A model generated the notes under the pieces. That model was given only the letters and a program-made list of their open reading frames with translations, searched no databases and was not told the DNA's origin. Positions 2,857-45,490 of a stretch of 64,000 bases of DNA are shown here, piece by piece; position 1 is the stretch's first letter; every line of letters starts with the position of its first letter. The stretch is from a virus, in the IMG/VR virus record IMGVR_UViG_3300025012_000042, positions 1 through 64,000 of that record. One strand, given 5' to 3'. Position numbers and translations under genes: made by a program.

Positions 2857-3918
2857 TTGAACAATACAATATTTTTACCCAAAACAATTAAAGTAGGCTA
2901 TCAAACACGCAATGATACATATACAGGACAATTGGCATATGTTATATATTTTGATCAAAAAGGAGTTTTAAGAAAGGAGAAATCTTGGGAGAGTTGGCGT
3001 GATAAGAAAATTGAACCACAAGAATTTTCTAATGAACCAACTTCTGGATTTGTACTTAATAAGAAAGTAGGTGATTATTCAAGTGGTTGGGATCATCGAA
3101 AATCATATTGTAGAGTTTACGATGAACGAAACTTCGAATTTGAGATTACAATAGAAAATTTACTCTATATTCTTGAAAATGCTAATTCTATCAAAGGTAA
3201 GGGATTAGAAGGGTTATTTGTCTATGGTTGGTCAGGATCAGATTTACTATTGATTCCAGTAGATTCACCAGACTACATTGAATTAGCAAAATTGAATGAC
3301 TTAAGACATGAGAAGAAGAAATTCGATGGCAAGACTCTAATCTTAGGTGGGACATATAAATCTAATTCTAATAAAGAATTAATTTATTTGGGTAGATTTT
3401 ATGAAAATAATGATGACAGCAAAGAAACTAAAACATATTTCTTCTATGATAGAAAGTCAAGTTATAGGAAAATCAATTCTATAAAATCTTTATCAGGAAG
3501 TATAATTGATATAGTTGATGAAAATTGTGTTGAAGATTACTCTAATTTGATGGATGAATTATTAAAAGATAGTAGTTATTCTGCCAGAGAACCTAAAAAT
3601 GATGTATATTTAGATTATACTTTAGAAGAATTTAAGAAATTGCTAGAAAAGAATTCATATTGGCATAATAAGTGTTATGTAAAAATTGATAAAAAATATG
3701 TAAGATATTACATCGAAAGACAAAGAAATTATTATCATTATTCCTATTCTAATTATGACAAAAGAAATGAAACTTATAATGTTTATACTACTACCAAGGG
3801 GAGAAAAGATGAAATATTTATGAGAGAAGCATCTCCCGAAAATGTTTTCAATACAATTAAACCAAAATACTTAGTAACTTATAATGTTAATAAAGAATTA
3901 ATTAAGGAGTGGAAATAA
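2857..3918 (+). CDS. Phage-type hypothetical protein (353 aa)
   Basis: Long ORF with a strong RBS (AGGAGG) and TTG start; no catalytic motif recognised. Confidence 0.7.
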   Translation: MNNTIFLPKTIKVGYQTRNDTYTGQLAYVIYFDQKGVLRKEKSWESWRDKKIEPQEFSNEPTSGFVLNKKVGDYSSGWDHRKSYCRVYDERNFEFEITIENLLYILENANSIKGKGLEGLFVYGWSGSDLLLIPVDSPDYIELAKLNDLRHEKKKFDGKTLILGGTYKSNSNKELIYLGRFYENNDDSKETKTYFFYDRKSSYRKINSIKSLSGSIIDIVDENCVEDYSNLMDELLKDSSYSAREPKNDVYLDYTLEEFKKLLEKNSYWHNKCYVKIDKKYVRYYIERQRNYYHYSYSNYDKRNETYNVYTTTKGRKDEIFMREASPENVFNTIKPKYLVTYNVNKELIKEWK

Positions 3919-39585: not shown

Positions 39586-41898
39586 TTGACTAAAATTAAT
39601 GATAACGCATTAAAACTACTTAAGGAAAAACAATACTTTAAAGATAATGAAAATACTTGGGACGATTTATCTAAAAGAGTCTCAATTGCTATAGCTGAAG
39701 CAGAAACAAATGAAGAAATTAAGAAAGAAGTTCAGAAAGATATTTATGATGCTATGACTAATTTAGATTTTGTTTTTAGCACTCCTTGCTTATTGAATGC
39801 AGATAAGAATAATCCTGGTCAACTAAGTAGTTGTTTTATTGCTGATACAAAAGATAGTATAGAAGAAATATGTAGAACTGATGCTGAGTTTTCAGTTATA
39901 TTCCAACGCAATGGTGGAGTTGGTACAGATTTAAGTGTAATACGTCCTGCTAAAGATATTGTAGAGACATCAAAAGGTTATGCTGGTGGAGTTATCACAT
40001 TTATGGAAAAATATGATTTTACAGCAGATAGAATGACGAGATTTAATCCGTCTAGAAAAGGTGCAATAAAAATAAATCTTAAAACCTTTCACCCTCAAAT
40101 TTTTGACTTTTTACATTGCAAAGATAATAAAGATATTTTAAATAGAATGAACATTAGTATATCATTCACTGATGAATTTATGGAAGCAGTAGTAAGTGAT
40201 TTAGATTGGAATTTAGAATTTCCAGATTATTCTTTCAGCAAAGAAATATATAATCAAGAGTGGGATGGGAATATTGAAAAATGGAAATCAAAAGGTTATC
40301 CAGTTAAAATTTATAAAGTAGTAAAAGCAAGGGATTTATTTAGAGAGTTTTCTGAGTCATCTTGGAAAACAGGTGAGCCAGGCGCGAATTATCAGTCTCG
40401 CATGTCGCTTGATAATATGAATCCTCACTTATCAAGTGAAATATATACTAACCCTTGTTCTGAGTTTTCAAATATTCCATATTCATCTTGCAATCTTGGA
40501 AGTATTAATCTTTTAAATTGTGTGAAAAATAACAAATTCGACTTTAACAAACTTAAATCTTTAACTTCTAAGGCAATTAGATGGTTAGATAATATGATAA
40601 GTGTTAATGTTCTACCACTTAAAAAGATTGATGAAGTTACAAAATTAATAAGGCCAATCGGTCTAGGAATTATGGGATTAGCAGATGCATTTTACATATT
40701 GGGAATTAAATATAATTCATTAGAAGGGTACGAATTGGCAGAACTTATAATTAAAACAATGAAGGAAATTGCCGTAACTACATCTATGGAATTAGTAAAA
40801 GAAAGAGGAGAATATCCTGCATGGGAAGGAAGCAAATGGGAAGAAATTGGAATTAAAATTCATAATAGTTCTTTGTTGTCTATAGCTCCAACAGGATCTA
40901 TTTCTTTTATTGCAGGAGTAAGTGGAGGTTGCGAACCAAACTTTGCTTTAACATTTTCAAGACGTACATATGATGGGAATATTTATTATGTAACTAATCC
41001 AATATTTGAAAATAAATTAAAAGAACTTGGTATTTATTCTATTGAACTTATGGAGAAAATTGAAAAGAATCATGGAAGTTGCCAAGGAATTTTAGAAATT
41101 CCAAAAGATATTCAGGAGATATTCGTTACAGCACATGACCTAACTCCAGAAGAGCATGTAGATATGGTAGAAGTTTTGCAAAAACACGTTGATTTAAGCT
41201 TATCAAAAACAGTTAACTTTTCAAGCAACGCTACAGTTGAAGATATTTACAATATATACATATATGCGTGGAGAAAAGGATTAAAGGGACTAAGTGTCTA
41301 CCGTGATGGTTCAAGAGATAATCAAACATTATCAAGTGGCAATACATTATCAGATGAAATTGCTGAAATAATTGATCGAGGGTATGTTATCAAAGCTCCA
41401 TCAGTGGCAGATAGTAGAACTTATAAATTTGTTAGTGGATGTGGGAATGCGTATGTTACTGTAACTTGGGATGAAAAAGGCAACATTAATCAAACATTTA
41501 CTAATAAAGGAAGTAGTGGTACATGTAAAAGCAATCAAGAAGCAGTATCGAGATTGATTTCACTTTCATTACGTGGTGGTATTCCTATTGATAATATTAT
41601 TGATCAACTAGAAAGTGTGGATATTTGTTCTTCATACACAAATGCTAGAGTTAAAGGAAAACCAGTTAGCAAAGGTGCTAGTTGTCCTCACGCTATTGCT
41701 AATATTCTCAAACAAGCAATAAAGGACGTAGATAATAAGTTTGATAATATAGAATTTAAATTAGAAAATAAGATTGGAAAAGAATTAGTAGAAGTAACTG
41801 TAATTAATAATTCAAGACTATGCCCCGAATGTAAAGAACCATTAATTAGTGACGGTTCATGTATATGCTGTAAGGCTTGTGGATATAGCAAGTGCTAA
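39586..41898 (+). CDS. nrdJ: Class II (B12-dependent) ribonucleotide reductase with C-terminal TSCPD-like domain
   Basis: LSSCF, GGVG, TNPCSE, CNLGSIN, IAPTGSIS and YRDGSR motifs; C-terminal SCPHA and CPEC...CKAC; no nrdB nearby. Confidence 0.9.
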   Translation: MTKINDNALKLLKEKQYFKDNENTWDDLSKRVSIAIAEAETNEEIKKEVQKDIYDAMTNLDFVFSTPCLLNADKNNPGQLSSCFIADTKDSIEEICRTDAEFSVIFQRNGGVGTDLSVIRPAKDIVETSKGYAGGVITFMEKYDFTADRMTRFNPSRKGAIKINLKTFHPQIFDFLHCKDNKDILNRMNISISFTDEFMEAVVSDLDWNLEFPDYSFSKEIYNQEWDGNIEKWKSKGYPVKIYKVVKARDLFREFSESSWKTGEPGANYQSRMSLDNMNPHLSSEIYTNPCSEFSNIPYSSCNLGSINLLNCVKNNKFDFNKLKSLTSKAIRWLDNMISVNVLPLKKIDEVTKLIRPIGLGIMGLADAFYILGIKYNSLEGYELAELIIKTMKEIAVTTSMELVKERGEYPAWEGSKWEEIGIKIHNSSLLSIAPTGSISFIAGVSGGCEPNFALTFSRRTYDGNIYYVTNPIFENKLKELGIYSIELMEKIEKNHGSCQGILEIPKDIQEIFVTAHDLTPEEHVDMVEVLQKHVDLSLSKTVNFSSNATVEDIYNIYIYAWRKGLKGLSVYRDGSRDNQTLSSGNTLSDEIAEIIDRGYVIKAPSVADSRTYKFVSGCGNAYVTVTWDEKGNINQTFTNKGSSGTCKSNQEAVSRLISLSLRGGIPIDNIIDQLESVDICSSYTNARVKGKPVSKGASCPHAIANILKQAIKDVDNKFDNIEFKLENKIGKELVEVTVINNSRLCPECKEPLISDGSCICCKACGYSKC

Positions 41899-41930
41899 TA
41901 AAAAAATTAAATGAAAAGAGGCAAATTAAT

Positions 41931-42317
41931 ATGATGAAGCAACAAGAACAAGTAAAAGAATTTCAGATGGCATTTAATCACCCAATCGCAAATACACCTA
42001 CATTTATGGATAAAAAGAGAGCAGAAGCAAGAATGAGTTGGGTAATAGAAGAGGTAAATGAATTTTTAGAATCAGATAATGTAATTGATCAAGCAGACGC
42101 TTTATGTGACATGCTTTATTTTATTTTAGGAACATCCGTGGAATGCGGTGTGGATTTAGAACCTGTATTTGATATTGTACAAAAAGCAAATATGGCAAAA
42201 CTTTGGCCTGATGGAAAACCTCATTATAGGGAATTAGATGGCAAAGTTGCAAAACCAGATGGATGGCAAGCACCTGAGCCTCAAATTGAAGCAGAAATTA
42301 AAAGACAAATGAAGTGA
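41931..42317 (+). CDS. MazG-like / PRA-PH NTP pyrophosphohydrolase
   Basis: EEVNEF...DALCDMLYF...VQKANMAK...GKVAKP pattern. Confidence 0.75.
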   Translation: MMKQQEQVKEFQMAFNHPIANTPTFMDKKRAEARMSWVIEEVNEFLESDNVIDQADALCDMLYFILGTSVECGVDLEPVFDIVQKANMAKLWPDGKPHYRELDGKVAKPDGWQAPEPQIEAEIKRQMK

Positions 42318-42332
42318 TTATTAAATAAATAT

Positions 42333-42356
42333 GGAGAGATTGAAATACATCTCTCC
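42333..42356 (+). terminator. Stem-loop
   Basis: GGAGAGAT-N8-ATCTCTCC. Confidence 0.45.
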
Positions 42357-42386
42357 TACCTTCGCAGAAAGGAGTAACAAAACAAA

Positions 42387-42861
42387 ATGCAAATAATAAA
42401 CTGGGATGACTACTTCATGTCAGTAGCATACATATCATCATTACGTAGTAAAGATCCAAATACTCAAGTTGGTGCTTGCATAGTGGACACTAACCATCGA
42501 ATCATATCAACTGGTTATAATGGTATGGTGAATGGATGCAATGATATCGATATGCCTTGGAGAAGATCAAAGGGATTAGATGGAAAATATCTATATGTAG
42601 TACATAGTGGAACTCAATGCCATATTACATGCTAGAATAAATTTAGAAGGGTGTAAAATATATGTAACTTTATTTCCATGTAACGAATGTGTTAAAGCTA
42701 TTATTCAATCTGGAATCAAAGAAATAATATATTTAAATGATAAATATAAAGAAGATGACCAGATAATTTCAGCTAAATTTATGCTTGATATGGTAAATAT
42801 CAATTATAGACAATTAATATCTGATGTAAATATTAAGATAAATTTTAAAAAAGAAGAGTAG
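42387..42861 (+). pseudogene. dCMP deaminase (ComEB-like) with a +1 frameshift at the HxE motif
   Basis: WDDYFM..RSKDPNTQVGACIV..GYNG in the first frame; ELNAI..TLFPCNECVKAIIQSGI in the second. An extra G in CAT AGT G GAA (about 42609) breaks HSE. Confidence 0.85.
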
Positions 42862-42875
42862 AGGATTAATATATC

Positions 42876-44309
42876 ATGTCATTTTATATTTTAACATTGT
42901 CTTTAAAGACTGAAAAATTTCAAGAACATATTTTAAATAAGCATTATGAAAAATATAGAAAGATTTATAATGCTTGTATTGAAGAATTATATAAACGATA
43001 TAATCATATGCGAGAATCAAAAGAATATCAAAGGAATTGCAAATCAGATAGGATAGATAGAAATAAAGTATTTTATGAATTAGATAAAAGGTTTGGATTA
43101 ACAGAATATTCTTTACATTATTTTACAAAACCAATGGCGAAATATTTTAATGTTAATGCCATGATAACCCAAGTAATTCATAAAAGAGCTTTTAAATCTT
43201 TTCGTTTACTAATGCTACACAAAGCAAAAAAGATTAAATATAAATCTTATGGTGAATTAAATTCTATAGAAGGAAAAACGAGTAAAAAGAGTATAATATT
43301 TAGAGATGATAATATATTATTCGCAGGACTTAAAATTCCAGTAATTATTAAAAAAATTGATTATTATAGTCGTATATCATTAAATGATAAAATTAAGTAT
43401 TGCAGAATTAAGCGTGAAGTAATCAAAGGAAAATATCATTATTATGCTCAGTTTATTATTGAAGGTGTTCCTCCTATAAGAATTGATAAAACTACTGGTG
43501 AAATAAAAAATTATGTTAATGACGGGGTTGTAGGTTTAGATATTGGCACTCAAAGTTTAGGTATATGTTCCAAAACAGAAGTTAAATTGCTTGAACTATG
43601 TCCTGAAGTACAGGATATTGAGAAACAGAAGAGAATACTACAAAGAAAAATGGATAGATCAAGGCGTTCAACCAATCCTGATAAATACAATGATAACGGA
43701 ACATATAAAAATAAAAACAATATTAAATGGATTAAATCTAAACACTATATTAAAACCCAAAATGAATTAAAAGAACTATACCGAAAACAAAGAGAAATAA
43801 GAAAACATTCTCATAACAAATTGGCAAATTATATTTTATCATTAGGCAATGATATTAAGGTAGAAACTATGGATTTTGTAGAATTACAAGTTAGAAATTC
43901 TACTATAAGCAAAAATACTGGAAAAATTATTAAAAATAAAAAGTTTGGAAAATCTTTGGAGAATAAAGCACCAGCTATGCTTTTAACAATTTTGGATACT
44001 AAATTAAAATGGTCAAATACACAATTAAATAAAGTAAATACATATAAGGTTAAAGCTAGTCAATATAATCATATAAAGAATACTTATATTAAAAAGAATT
44101 TAAATGAGAGGTGGAACAATTTTGGAGAGTTTAAAATTCAAAGAGACTTATACTCGGAATTTTTAATTATGAATGTAAATGATGATTTAGAAACTATTAA
44201 TAGAGACTTGTGTTTTGAGAAGTTTCAGGAATTTAAAATATTGCACGATATTGAAATTGATAGATTAAGAGGTTTAAAGGAAAATAAAATAATCAAAATT
44301 TTAATTTAA
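42876..44309 (+). CDS. tnpB: TnpB-family RNA-guided endonuclease, orphan (no TnpA)
   Basis: RuvC-I VGLDIG, RuvC-II IKVE and RuvC-III QRDLYS with acidic residues intact; LQRKMDRSRR bridge region; no CxxC zinc finger. Confidence 0.85.
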   Translation: MSFYILTLSLKTEKFQEHILNKHYEKYRKIYNACIEELYKRYNHMRESKEYQRNCKSDRIDRNKVFYELDKRFGLTEYSLHYFTKPMAKYFNVNAMITQVIHKRAFKSFRLLMLHKAKKIKYKSYGELNSIEGKTSKKSIIFRDDNILFAGLKIPVIIKKIDYYSRISLNDKIKYCRIKREVIKGKYHYYAQFIIEGVPPIRIDKTTGEIKNYVNDGVVGLDIGTQSLGICSKTEVKLLELCPEVQDIEKQKRILQRKMDRSRRSTNPDKYNDNGTYKNKNNIKWIKSKHYIKTQNELKELYRKQREIRKHSHNKLANYILSLGNDIKVETMDFVELQVRNSTISKNTGKIIKNKKFGKSLENKAPAMLLTILDTKLKWSNTQLNKVNTYKVKASQYNHIKNTYIKKNLNERWNNFGEFKIQRDLYSEFLIMNVNDDLETINRDLCFEKFQEFKILHDIEIDRLRGLKENKIIKILI

Positions 44310-44516
44310 AATGAACCAAGTCTAGAATCGGACTTGATGCTATCGTTAATTATTTCATTAGAGATATTGATAGTGAAAGTCTTATGGAAAATGATTAGTG
44401 TTTATATGTGTAATTTATAGATGAGTATAATGCCTATAAATGAGAGTATAAAAGAAATTCATGAGTACATAAGAACCTGCATTCGTGTAGAGGTTCGTAA
44501 CGGGATGCCTAATGAA
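44310..44516 (+). ncRNA. Putative omegaRNA scaffold plus guide for TnpB
   Basis: About 190 nt of non-coding sequence after tnpB, ending in the hairpin GAACCT..AGGTTC (44473-44496) and followed by GTAACGGGATGCCTAATG. Confidence 0.6.
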
Positions 44517-44587
44517 ATAGATAAAATATTAGGCAATTTTAATACTAAAATTGCAATAAAATTAAATATTGAGGAGTGATATAATAA

Positions 44588-45490
44588 TTGAATTTACTAG
44601 AAAAAATCCATTCCAAAACAGACAACACAATTAAATATATATTCATGACACAAGACAATCTAATCATTGAACTATCTTACATAAATAAAAATGATGGTAA
44701 AGATATTATCTGTGTTCCTTCACAAACTTCTTGTAAAATGAAGTGTAAATTCTGCCATATTACTGATGCTACAGATAAATTAATCAATCGAAATCTAACA
44801 TCACAAGAAATTAAAGATAGCATAGATAATGTTTATAACGACCTAAATTTATCACTCAATCCCAAACCATTACTAATATCTTATATGGGATGTGGTGAAC
44901 CACTATTAAACTATAAACAAGTAAAAGATAGCATGTTATTACTTAGAAATGAATATCAAACCACAAAAGTTCCATTAATTAGATTTGCAATAGCAACATC
45001 ATTACCTGATTTTGCATGGATAAACTTCTTTAATTTAACTAATGAAATACATAAAGAAAAACTACCCGTAAAAATTCATTTGTCTCTACATTATACTATG
45101 GATTCTTTACGAAAAGATTGGATGCCTAATTCCTTATCAATTTTACCATCATTGATTGCATTAGAATATTACAAGAAAATTACTAAAAATTCTGTAGAAA
45201 TTCACTATACTTTGATTAACGGAGTTAATGATACTGAACGAGATGCAATTAGATTGAGTGAGTTTTTAAAATATCGAGATATTCCAGTTAAATTCTTATT
45301 CTACAATGAAAAACCAAGTATTGAATTTCATGCGAGTTCAAAAGAAAAATTGAATATATTTAAGAGATATTTTGATAAGTATAATATTGAATATGAGTAT
45401 TATATCCCTCCAGGTCTTGATGTAGGAGCTAGTTGTGGTCAGTTTTTAATGGATTATTATTTGAAATATAATCTGGTTAAGAGTAATTAA
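44588..45490 (+). CDS. RlmN/Cfr-like radical SAM methyltransferase lacking the N-terminal domain
   Basis: CVPSQTSCKMKCKFC (CxxxCxxC plus upstream Cys), MGCGEP, SLH, GVND and C-terminal ASCGQ. Confidence 0.8.
   Translation: MNLLEKIHSKTDNTIKYIFMTQDNLIIELSYINKNDGKDIICVPSQTSCKMKCKFCHITDATDKLINRNLTSQEIKDSIDNVYNDLNLSLNPKPLLISYMGCGEPLLNYKQVKDSMLLLRNEYQTTKVPLIRFAIATSLPDFAWINFFNLTNEIHKEKLPVKIHLSLHYTMDSLRKDWMPNSLSILPSLIALEYYKKITKNSVEIHYTLINGVNDTERDAIRLSEFLKYRDIPVKFLFYNEKPSIEFHASSKEKLNIFKRYFDKYNIEYEYYIPPGLDVGASCGQFLMDYYLKYNLVKSN

Follow-up and report, generated by a model that had tools for sequence, protein, structure and literature searches.

We analysed a window of 64,000 nucleotides (nt), the first 64 kb of a 112.8-kb phage record in IMG/VR (IMGVR_UViG_3300025012_000042), and describe here a cassette in which the gene of a TnpB nuclease sits inside a gene for dCMP deaminase (dCD). 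The gene order at the locus is ribonucleotide reductase, a MazG-like gene, dCD, tnpB, about 280 bp without a convincing gene and a radical SAM gene. The features of the cassette all lie on the plus strand. The dCD gene begins with a native 5′ part (nt 1-132 of the gene, 42387-42518), which ends in the Gly-Tyr codons GGT TAT (TTAT here, TTAC in several relatives), and continues with a foreign 3′ part (nt 133-475, 42519-42861), which travels with the cassette and carries a target-like site at 42519-42534 reading N-G-M-V-N. The stop of dCD ends at 42861 and tnpB starts at 42876, with a spacer of 14 bp (42862-42875) that holds a ribosome-binding site. The tnpB gene (42876-44309) encodes 477 amino acids and is followed by 189 nt of omegaRNA scaffold and transposon right end (44310-44498), with a terminal hairpin at 44473-44496. 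Next come a 16-nt guide (44499-44514), corresponding to native dCD nt 133-148 (N-G-M-P-N), and, separated from it by 5 nt (44515-44519), a decayed and displaced native dCD 3′ end (nt ~411-475, 44520-44579). This remnant has its stop at 44577-44579, and within it lies the ribosome-binding site used by the neighbour on the right, a radical SAM gene (44588-45490).

Relatives that lack the cassette define its borders. In a sister phage (L013), mazG is followed by an intact dCD gene and, 8 bp past its stop, by the radical SAM gene, with no tnpB; compared with this phage, 42519-44519 of the window stands in place of native dCD nt 133-410. Sixteen further relatives are also tnpB-less at the site, giving 17 empty sites against 4 carriers. 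The element is IS608-like and belongs to the ISCbt1 family. It lies precisely 3′ of the dCD Gly-Tyr codons, and these are the TTAC target motif of that family. Therefore, the first bases past its right end are the native N-G-M-P-N codons, in guide position.

The left half of such an element is missing. We found no left-end hairpin motif upstream of tnpB (41500-42900 searched) and no Y1 tnpA (Y1_Tnp) in the 112.8-kb record. The spacer contains neither a left end nor tnpA nor an internal tnpB promoter; in canonical family members tnpB is preceded by a TTGACA/TATAAT promoter and, in many cases, by a Y1 tnpA, and both are missing from the cassette copies. Both features of an autonomous or mobilisable IS200/IS605 element, a left-end hairpin with a TTAC junction and a Y1 tnpA, are thus absent here and present in relatives. 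An earlier note on this DNA had remarked that tnpB starts 14 bp past the dCD stop with no room for tnpA or a left end, and both its coordinates and this remark proved right. Left end and tnpA are gone, and the foreign dCD 3′ part, in their slot, completes the dCD reading frame. Without tnpA and a left end, the element therefore cannot be excised or transposed by TnpA.

The two parts of the dCD gene have different relatives. Compared with 12 tnpB-less relatives, private bases in the window gene amount to 2 of 141 before position 42528 and 51 of 334 after it; the chi-square maximum for the breakpoint lies at 42528, and any point within 42462-42528 is compatible. The nearest match of dCD nt 1-132 is a tnpB-less phage (L042, 91.7%). 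The remainder is 91-98% identical to three other carriers and at most 79% identical to any tnpB-less relative; its best non-carrier relatives (70% amino-acid identity) are other phages than those related to the native part. An assembly chimera is an unlikely source of the breakpoints, the identity at the junctions being too short to mislead an assembler.

The original end of the gene is still recognisable beyond the guide. The remnant at 44520-44579 is identical to one tnpB-less relative (L040) at 54 of 59 positions and to another (L045) at 58 of 70, with three small indels. The resident dCD 3′ end is only 51-65% identical to these relatives. By these comparisons, the resident allele is a foreign dCD 3′ part that arrived together with tnpB. 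This replaces the view of the earlier note, which took it for a recoded native gene and whose account of the locus included neither the displaced remnant nor the frameshift described next.

In the window, dCD is split over two frames (42387-42635 and 42607-42861), and both halves match PF00383. The +1 frameshift is due to one extra G at 42609/42610, relative to related genes, in the catalytic H-(A/S)-E motif. The same gene is intact in two other carriers. L162, whose dCD nt 133-475 are 99% identical to those of the window, has H-S-E at this motif, and L163 has the usual H-A-E. The extra G may reflect a real pseudogene or an assembly error.

The 189 nt past the tnpB stop have a conserved RNA structure of 45 predicted pairs, 30 of which show compensatory changes in a 45-sequence family alignment; no Rfam model matches this scaffold. 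Its end was located by homology. Three identical ISCbt1 copies in phage c-st diverge right after a terminal TCAG, and about 50 family members share the right end TTCAG followed by unrelated flanks. The corresponding end here is 44498 (TTCGT in the window, TTCAT in the three closest copies). Therefore, the guide starts at 44499, as the earlier note had placed it. The short form of the terminal hairpin was considered as a sign of decay and ruled out, several canonical family members sharing it.

The same note had described a non-coding tail of about 190 nt ending in the hairpin; the structured RNA is there, and the tail also contains an open reading frame (ORF) of 52 amino acids (44421-44579). 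This ORF is probably not a gene because the other cassette copies lack it, and for that reason it was also rejected as an alternative meaning of the guide region. A hairpin formed by TGCCTAAT/ATTAGGCA was rejected as well, as it is not conserved and is missing from the other three cassettes. Separately, an omegaRNA-like scaffold of this family (78.6% identity over 105 nt) is present in Clostridioides phage CD1801 (MW512570.1; L004:2501-2605), in an unannotated gap past the portal gene. It has no tnpB nearby and could be a stand-alone guide RNA or an element remnant.

In IS200/IS605 elements, the motif targeted on insertion, which lies 5′ of the left end, is also the target-adjacent motif (TAM; PMC8612924). 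In the present family TTAC stands directly before the left end in 11 of 11 distinct junctions, all read independently of the dCD gene: three in c-st, one each in the second element of the window's genome, in Geobacillus virus E3 and in phiCDIF1296T, and five in metagenome loci. The IS608 pairing rule is the background to this reading. In dCD genes, TTAC is made of the last Gly base and the Tyr codon (GG[T TAC]), directly 5′ of the guide-matching bases. The suggestion of the earlier note that the TAM falls in the Gly-Tyr codons is thereby borne out.

The second element of the same family in this phage lies at G000:C1:107907-109529 on the minus strand (locus L081, 7381-9230). It encodes 489 amino acids, is 68% identical at the DNA level and has a left-end hairpin after TTAC and the right end TTCAG, with no tnpA. 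When the stretch between TTAC and TTCAG is deleted, the flanks form one continuous open frame; the family-wide junctions favour TTAC, though both boundaries keep the frame.

The TnpB protein is divergent. It scores 21.6 bits against Pfam OrfB_IS605, under the gathering cut-off of 30.5, and no Pfam match to OrfB_Zn_ribbon was found in it, its CxxC motifs being replaced by KASQYNH. It matches PHROG 506 (transposase) at 7.6e-52. A sequence search of the PDB found no TnpB, so a fold search was needed: an AlphaFold model (pLDDT 82) submitted to Foldseek retrieved ISFba1 TnpB (8iaz, 4e-12) and ISDra2 TnpB (8h1j, 2e-11) at the top, followed by Cas12f and Fanzor2. The three RuvC residues D222, E330 and D424 do not vary among the 40 aligned sequences of the family. 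Together, model and alignment predict a RuvC-like fold with the D-E-D triad, and the earlier statement that this triad is intact stands. Since the triad is intact and invariant, we do not class the protein as a nuclease-dead regulator of the TldR type.

The clade to which this TnpB belongs is divergent and zinc-ribbon-less and has more than 2,600 members. In the whole clade, the region from the RuvC Glu to the final Asp contains no cysteine zinc ribbon and has the invariant motifs KASQYNH and WN..(E)F..QRD instead. Relatives with a Y1 tnpA just upstream include c-st (ISCbt1), Geobacillus virus E3 and many metagenome contigs. A search of viral contigs with the single TnpB protein gave no match; protein P0002 is a homologue of 86% identity. 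Another TnpB homologue (48-63% identity, apparently frameshifted) occurs about 1.3 kb downstream of dCD in a relative that is tnpB-less at the dCD site (L051:5784-7150).

An alignment-based metagenome scan returned 80 loci of the TnpB family, three of which have the same layout of mazG, dCD, tnpB and radical SAM. These loci pair a guide with a divergent neighbouring dCD, as the earlier note had proposed to look for. In L162, TnpB is 95% identical to that of the window, and in L163 it is 86% identical; dCD is intact in both. In L216 (413-560) an in-frame deletion fuses dCD (~nt 365) to TnpB codon 138, so that both genes are destroyed; the omegaRNA and guide seed are intact.

The left border of the shared block falls in the same interval in all four carriers. 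Their dCD nt 1-132 have different tnpB-less phages as nearest matches (L042 for the window and L162, ~92%; L043 for L163, 94.7%; L049 for L216, 97%), and nt 133-364 form a carrier-only clade, with 91-98% identity among its members and no more than 79% to any other sequence. In all four, the mismatch density against the nearest non-carrier rises from 3-9% to 27-29% between dCD nt 129 and 142. The window and L162 differ at 18 positions up to nt 129; beyond it they are nearly identical to the end of dCD and over the initial third of tnpB. The mazG and radical SAM genes of carriers are no closer to each other than to those of non-carriers, and the reductase genes upstream differ completely. This carrier-only clade amid unlike flanks is thus a module that several mosaic phage genomes contain and whose left border coincides with the junction of TAM and target. 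At least four phage backgrounds carry the module, and tnpB and guide nt 1-11 are conserved among them.

Among cassette copies, the ratio of nonsynonymous to synonymous substitution rates (dN/dS) of tnpB is 0.11-0.15 at dS up to 0.61, the mark of purifying selection in a setting with no tnpA; the carried dCD part has a dN/dS of 0.16-0.18. Because of this low ratio and the lack of a Y1 transposase in the record, the nuclease has been kept by selection since the cassette arose, without transposition.

As for the right-hand neighbour, the radical SAM protein of the window (300 amino acids) matches PHROG 27142 and, weakly, Pfam Radical_SAM (30.5 bits). In L163 this gene (3200-3860) is internally deleted and lacks roughly codons 5-89, the CxxxCxxC cluster motif included.

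The guide itself is unevenly conserved. Its nt 1-11 (44499-44509) are common to all four copies, position 12 is T in three copies and C in one, and nt 13-16 differ. In the four tnpB copies, 62% of third codon positions are invariant and 38% vary, and by this measure eleven invariant guide sites have a probability of ~0.005; other baselines give ~0.03 (intergenic DNA) and ~0.07 (constrained scaffold). In ISDra2 TnpB about 12 TAM-proximal base pairs are required for cutting, double mismatches in positions 1-12 abolish it and positions 13-16 are tolerant, with cuts 15-21 nt from the TAM (PMC10097598). The pattern seen here, with nt 1-11 fixed and nt 13-16 drifting, fits this 12-bp rule.

The resident allele departs from the guide within this region. 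It reads N-G-M-V-N in all four carriers (GTG for CCN), and 17 of 17 non-carriers have N-G-M-P, which the earlier note had predicted for the ordinary allele. Among 77 phage dCD proteins Pro is found at the motif in 68 and Val in none; Val is restricted to cassette carriers. In the window, the resident site differs from the guide at guide positions 3, 6, 10, 11 and 12, that is, at 5 of the 12 TAM-proximal positions, including the change from Pro to Val. By the ISDra2 mismatch rule, such mismatches would be predicted to shield the carrier's own allele from cutting. The similarity that had first drawn attention to the site, 12 of 17 identical bases between 44498-44514 and the resident gene, is correct and, taken alone, at chance level (P ~0.08 with shuffled queries, 0.35 with random 17-mers of the window).

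We then asked which natural dCD alleles the guide matches. Close tnpB-less relatives agree with it at 11-14 of 16 positions, and at best at 10-11 of the first 12. Ten exact matches of the 16-mer in IMG/VR all fall in unrelated genes, none of them a dCD gene, and were rejected as chance. The 11-nt seed together with the Gly-Tyr codons occurs in about 18 unrelated phage dCD genes, one of which (L275) has TTAC and 12 of 12 matches, and, within the first 120 matches to cellular genomes, in at least 47 dCD/comEB genes, many of them in Clostridia; one of these matches at 16 of 16 positions and one has TTAC with 15 of 16 (L331). The guide thus spells a real dCD allele, with no susceptible allele found among the sampled sister phages. 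This lack fits either prior conversion of the sister phages or a fossil guide.

On the sequence evidence, we lean, with slightly better than even confidence, towards the reading that this transposase-less TnpB/omegaRNA element works, or worked until recently, as an RNA-guided homing cassette against the dCD gene of related phages. The founding event would probably have been an ordinary TnpA-mediated insertion, after which an intact, resistant allele would have replaced the left end and tnpA. Guide-loaded TnpB would then cut dCD alleles with TTAC and a matching N-G-M-P in co-infecting phages. The break would be repaired from the carrier genome, with left homology in dCD nt 1-132 and mazG and right homology in the remnant and the radical SAM gene, and repair would copy in tnpB, the omegaRNA and, by co-conversion, the resistant dCD part, so that the recipient keeps a working deaminase. 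The empty sites, a right flank composed of native nt 133-148 and nt 411-475, the motif TTAC in 11 of 11 junctions, a right end fixed by about 50 family members and a breakpoint at the site itself all speak in favour of this homing model. The carrier-only clade over nt 133-364 beside nt 1-132 with different nearest relatives, the purifying selection on tnpB, the invariant guide nt 1-11 and the restriction of Val to carriers point in the same direction, and alleles with an exact seed do occur in nature (L275, L331). The observation at the core of the earlier note was confirmed, and its interpretation, an RNA-guided homing endonuclease, is partly supported.

Several observations weigh against homing and favour a more passive history, in which a single IS608-like insertion in dCD was followed by restoration of the gene by an intact divergent allele, with loss of the left end and tnpA. 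The block would then move by descent or by ordinary recombination in its flanks, the guide would be no more than an old flank and TnpB would drive nothing. None of the 17 close tnpB-less relatives carries a perfect target; the best has 14 of 16 matches, with one or two mismatches in the first 12, and the near-perfect target that the earlier note expected in such relatives did not turn up. In place of TTAC, the retained left junction reads TTAT, ATAT or CTAC in three of the four carriers, which leaves three options: a relaxed TAM, later mutation of the TAM, or transfer of the cassette by ordinary recombination. Moreover, these phages are highly mosaic, with recombination also inside tnpB, so that breakpoints at the edge of a heterologous block need not result from cutting. 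In addition, the guide has drifted at nt 13-16, the L216 copy is internally deleted and the dCD gene of the window is frameshifted. What such a fossil leaves unexplained is purifying selection on tnpB over a dS of ~0.6 without a transposase, a guide whose nt 1-11 vary less than either third codon positions or intergenic DNA, and a pattern of drift that fits the functional 12-bp rule. We consider it rather unlikely, while giving it more weight than the two explanations below.

The abundance of seed matches with Gly-Tyr codons in cellular dCD/comEB genes, with one full 16-nt match, and in unrelated phage dCD genes would be expected if TnpB and its guide served as a weapon against the dCD/comEB genes of competing phages, prophages or the host chromosome, to the benefit of the phage and with copying of the cassette incidental or absent. 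Nothing, however, ties the cassette to a host target, and the insertion geometry and carrier-only clade are explained by insertion into a phage dCD gene; this possibility seems improbable to us. That the bases past the right end merely happen to read N-G-M-P-N has negligible probability. The chance-level identity to the resident gene and the exact 16-mer matches in unrelated IMG/VR genes would agree with a coincidence, but the flank runs on into what is left of the native dCD 3′ end, with 92% identity, the match lies at the homologous position adjoining the family TAM, the recombination breakpoint maps to the guide-match site and four cassette copies share the guide match. The remnant and the empty-site comparison exclude it.

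A broader proposal follows the homing model, and we put it forward tentatively, at somewhat less than even confidence. Phages may host a natural class of RNA-guided "home-and-rescue" drives, in which non-transposing TnpB/omegaRNA units sit in conserved genes, bring along a cut-resistant substitute for the displaced gene part and owe their spread to cleavage of the ordinary allele when relatives co-infect. Such a strategy would have arisen repeatedly, and the dCD cassette would be an active lineage of it.

The cassette resembles several known systems. With TnpB of IS200/IS605 elements of the ISDra2 and IS608 type (PMC8612924, PMC10097598, bioRxiv 10.1101/2023.03.14.532601), it shares the RuvC fold, an omegaRNA scaffold at the right end, a guide taken from the right-end flank and a TAM that equals the motif 5′ of the left end (TTAC, as in IS608), and its relatives have a Y1 tnpA. 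It differs in having no tnpA, no left end and no cysteine zinc ribbon, and in holding a replacement piece of the interrupted gene in the slot of the former two. A known role of TnpB is to keep the transposon in place by re-copying after excision; the cassette is presumed to target an allele in a different genome and not the donor site left by excision. IStrons, which combine a group I intron with TnpB (PMC10690162), are likewise RNA-guided nuclease elements that leave the interrupted gene functional; they do so by splicing, the cassette by a replacement segment.

The closest published analogue is found in the mORF gene hybrids of fungal mitochondria (atp6 in Allomyces macrogynus; atp6, atp9, cox2 and nad3 in Glomus; PMC3630166). 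Their layout is the same, with a gene core, a foreign C-terminal part, an endonuclease gene and an orphaned native C-terminal remnant, and there too the remnant resembles the genes of relatives more closely than the divergent insert does. These hybrids use a DNA-recognising LAGLIDADG or GIY-YIG protein, whereas recognition by the cassette is predicted to rely on an RNA guide copied from the displaced gene. Intronless homing by SegF, SegG and Mob endonucleases of phage T4 (PMC155333, PMC13565253) offers a second parallel: a nuclease gene adjoins a conserved gene, the cognate gene of nuclease-less relatives is cut, the own copy is protected by sequence differences and the adjacent segment is co-converted. 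Unlike these systems, the cassette would owe its specificity to a 12-16-nt RNA guide and a TAM, and it sits inside the gene, whose end is duplicated.

Spread of TnpB elements without TnpA has also been described. IS605 on multicopy plasmids undergoes TnpA-independent and TnpB-dependent "non-restorative homing" (PMC11870625, discussed in PMC13565253), in which an orthologous site without the element, on a second DNA molecule, is cut by TnpB and acquires the element during repair. The elements in question were intact and plasmid-borne and, unlike the cassette, had no gene-rescue segment. A 2026 review treats TnpB homing between phage genomes as theoretical (PMC13565253).

Our literature search found no paper describing a cassette of this type. 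Here, in several phage backgrounds, a TnpB stripped of what transposition needs is nevertheless conserved with its TAM-proximal guide and packaged with a piece of its target gene that is predicted to resist cutting. If cutting takes place as proposed, the cassette would be the RNA-guided counterpart of the mORF hybrids and of the T4 Seg/Mob systems, and it would suggest a plausible route by which TnpB persists without TnpA. It would also add a TnpB clade that is compact, has no zinc ribbon and whose TAM (TTAC), scaffold and guide can be read from the sequence.

Finally, synthetic cleave-and-rescue and home-and-rescue drives, engineered Cas9 systems in insects, target an important gene with their guide and supply a rescue copy of it that resists cutting. 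The cassette shares with them an RNA-guided nuclease and a means to keep the interrupted gene working, and would, if cutting is real, be a natural precedent for such engineered drives.

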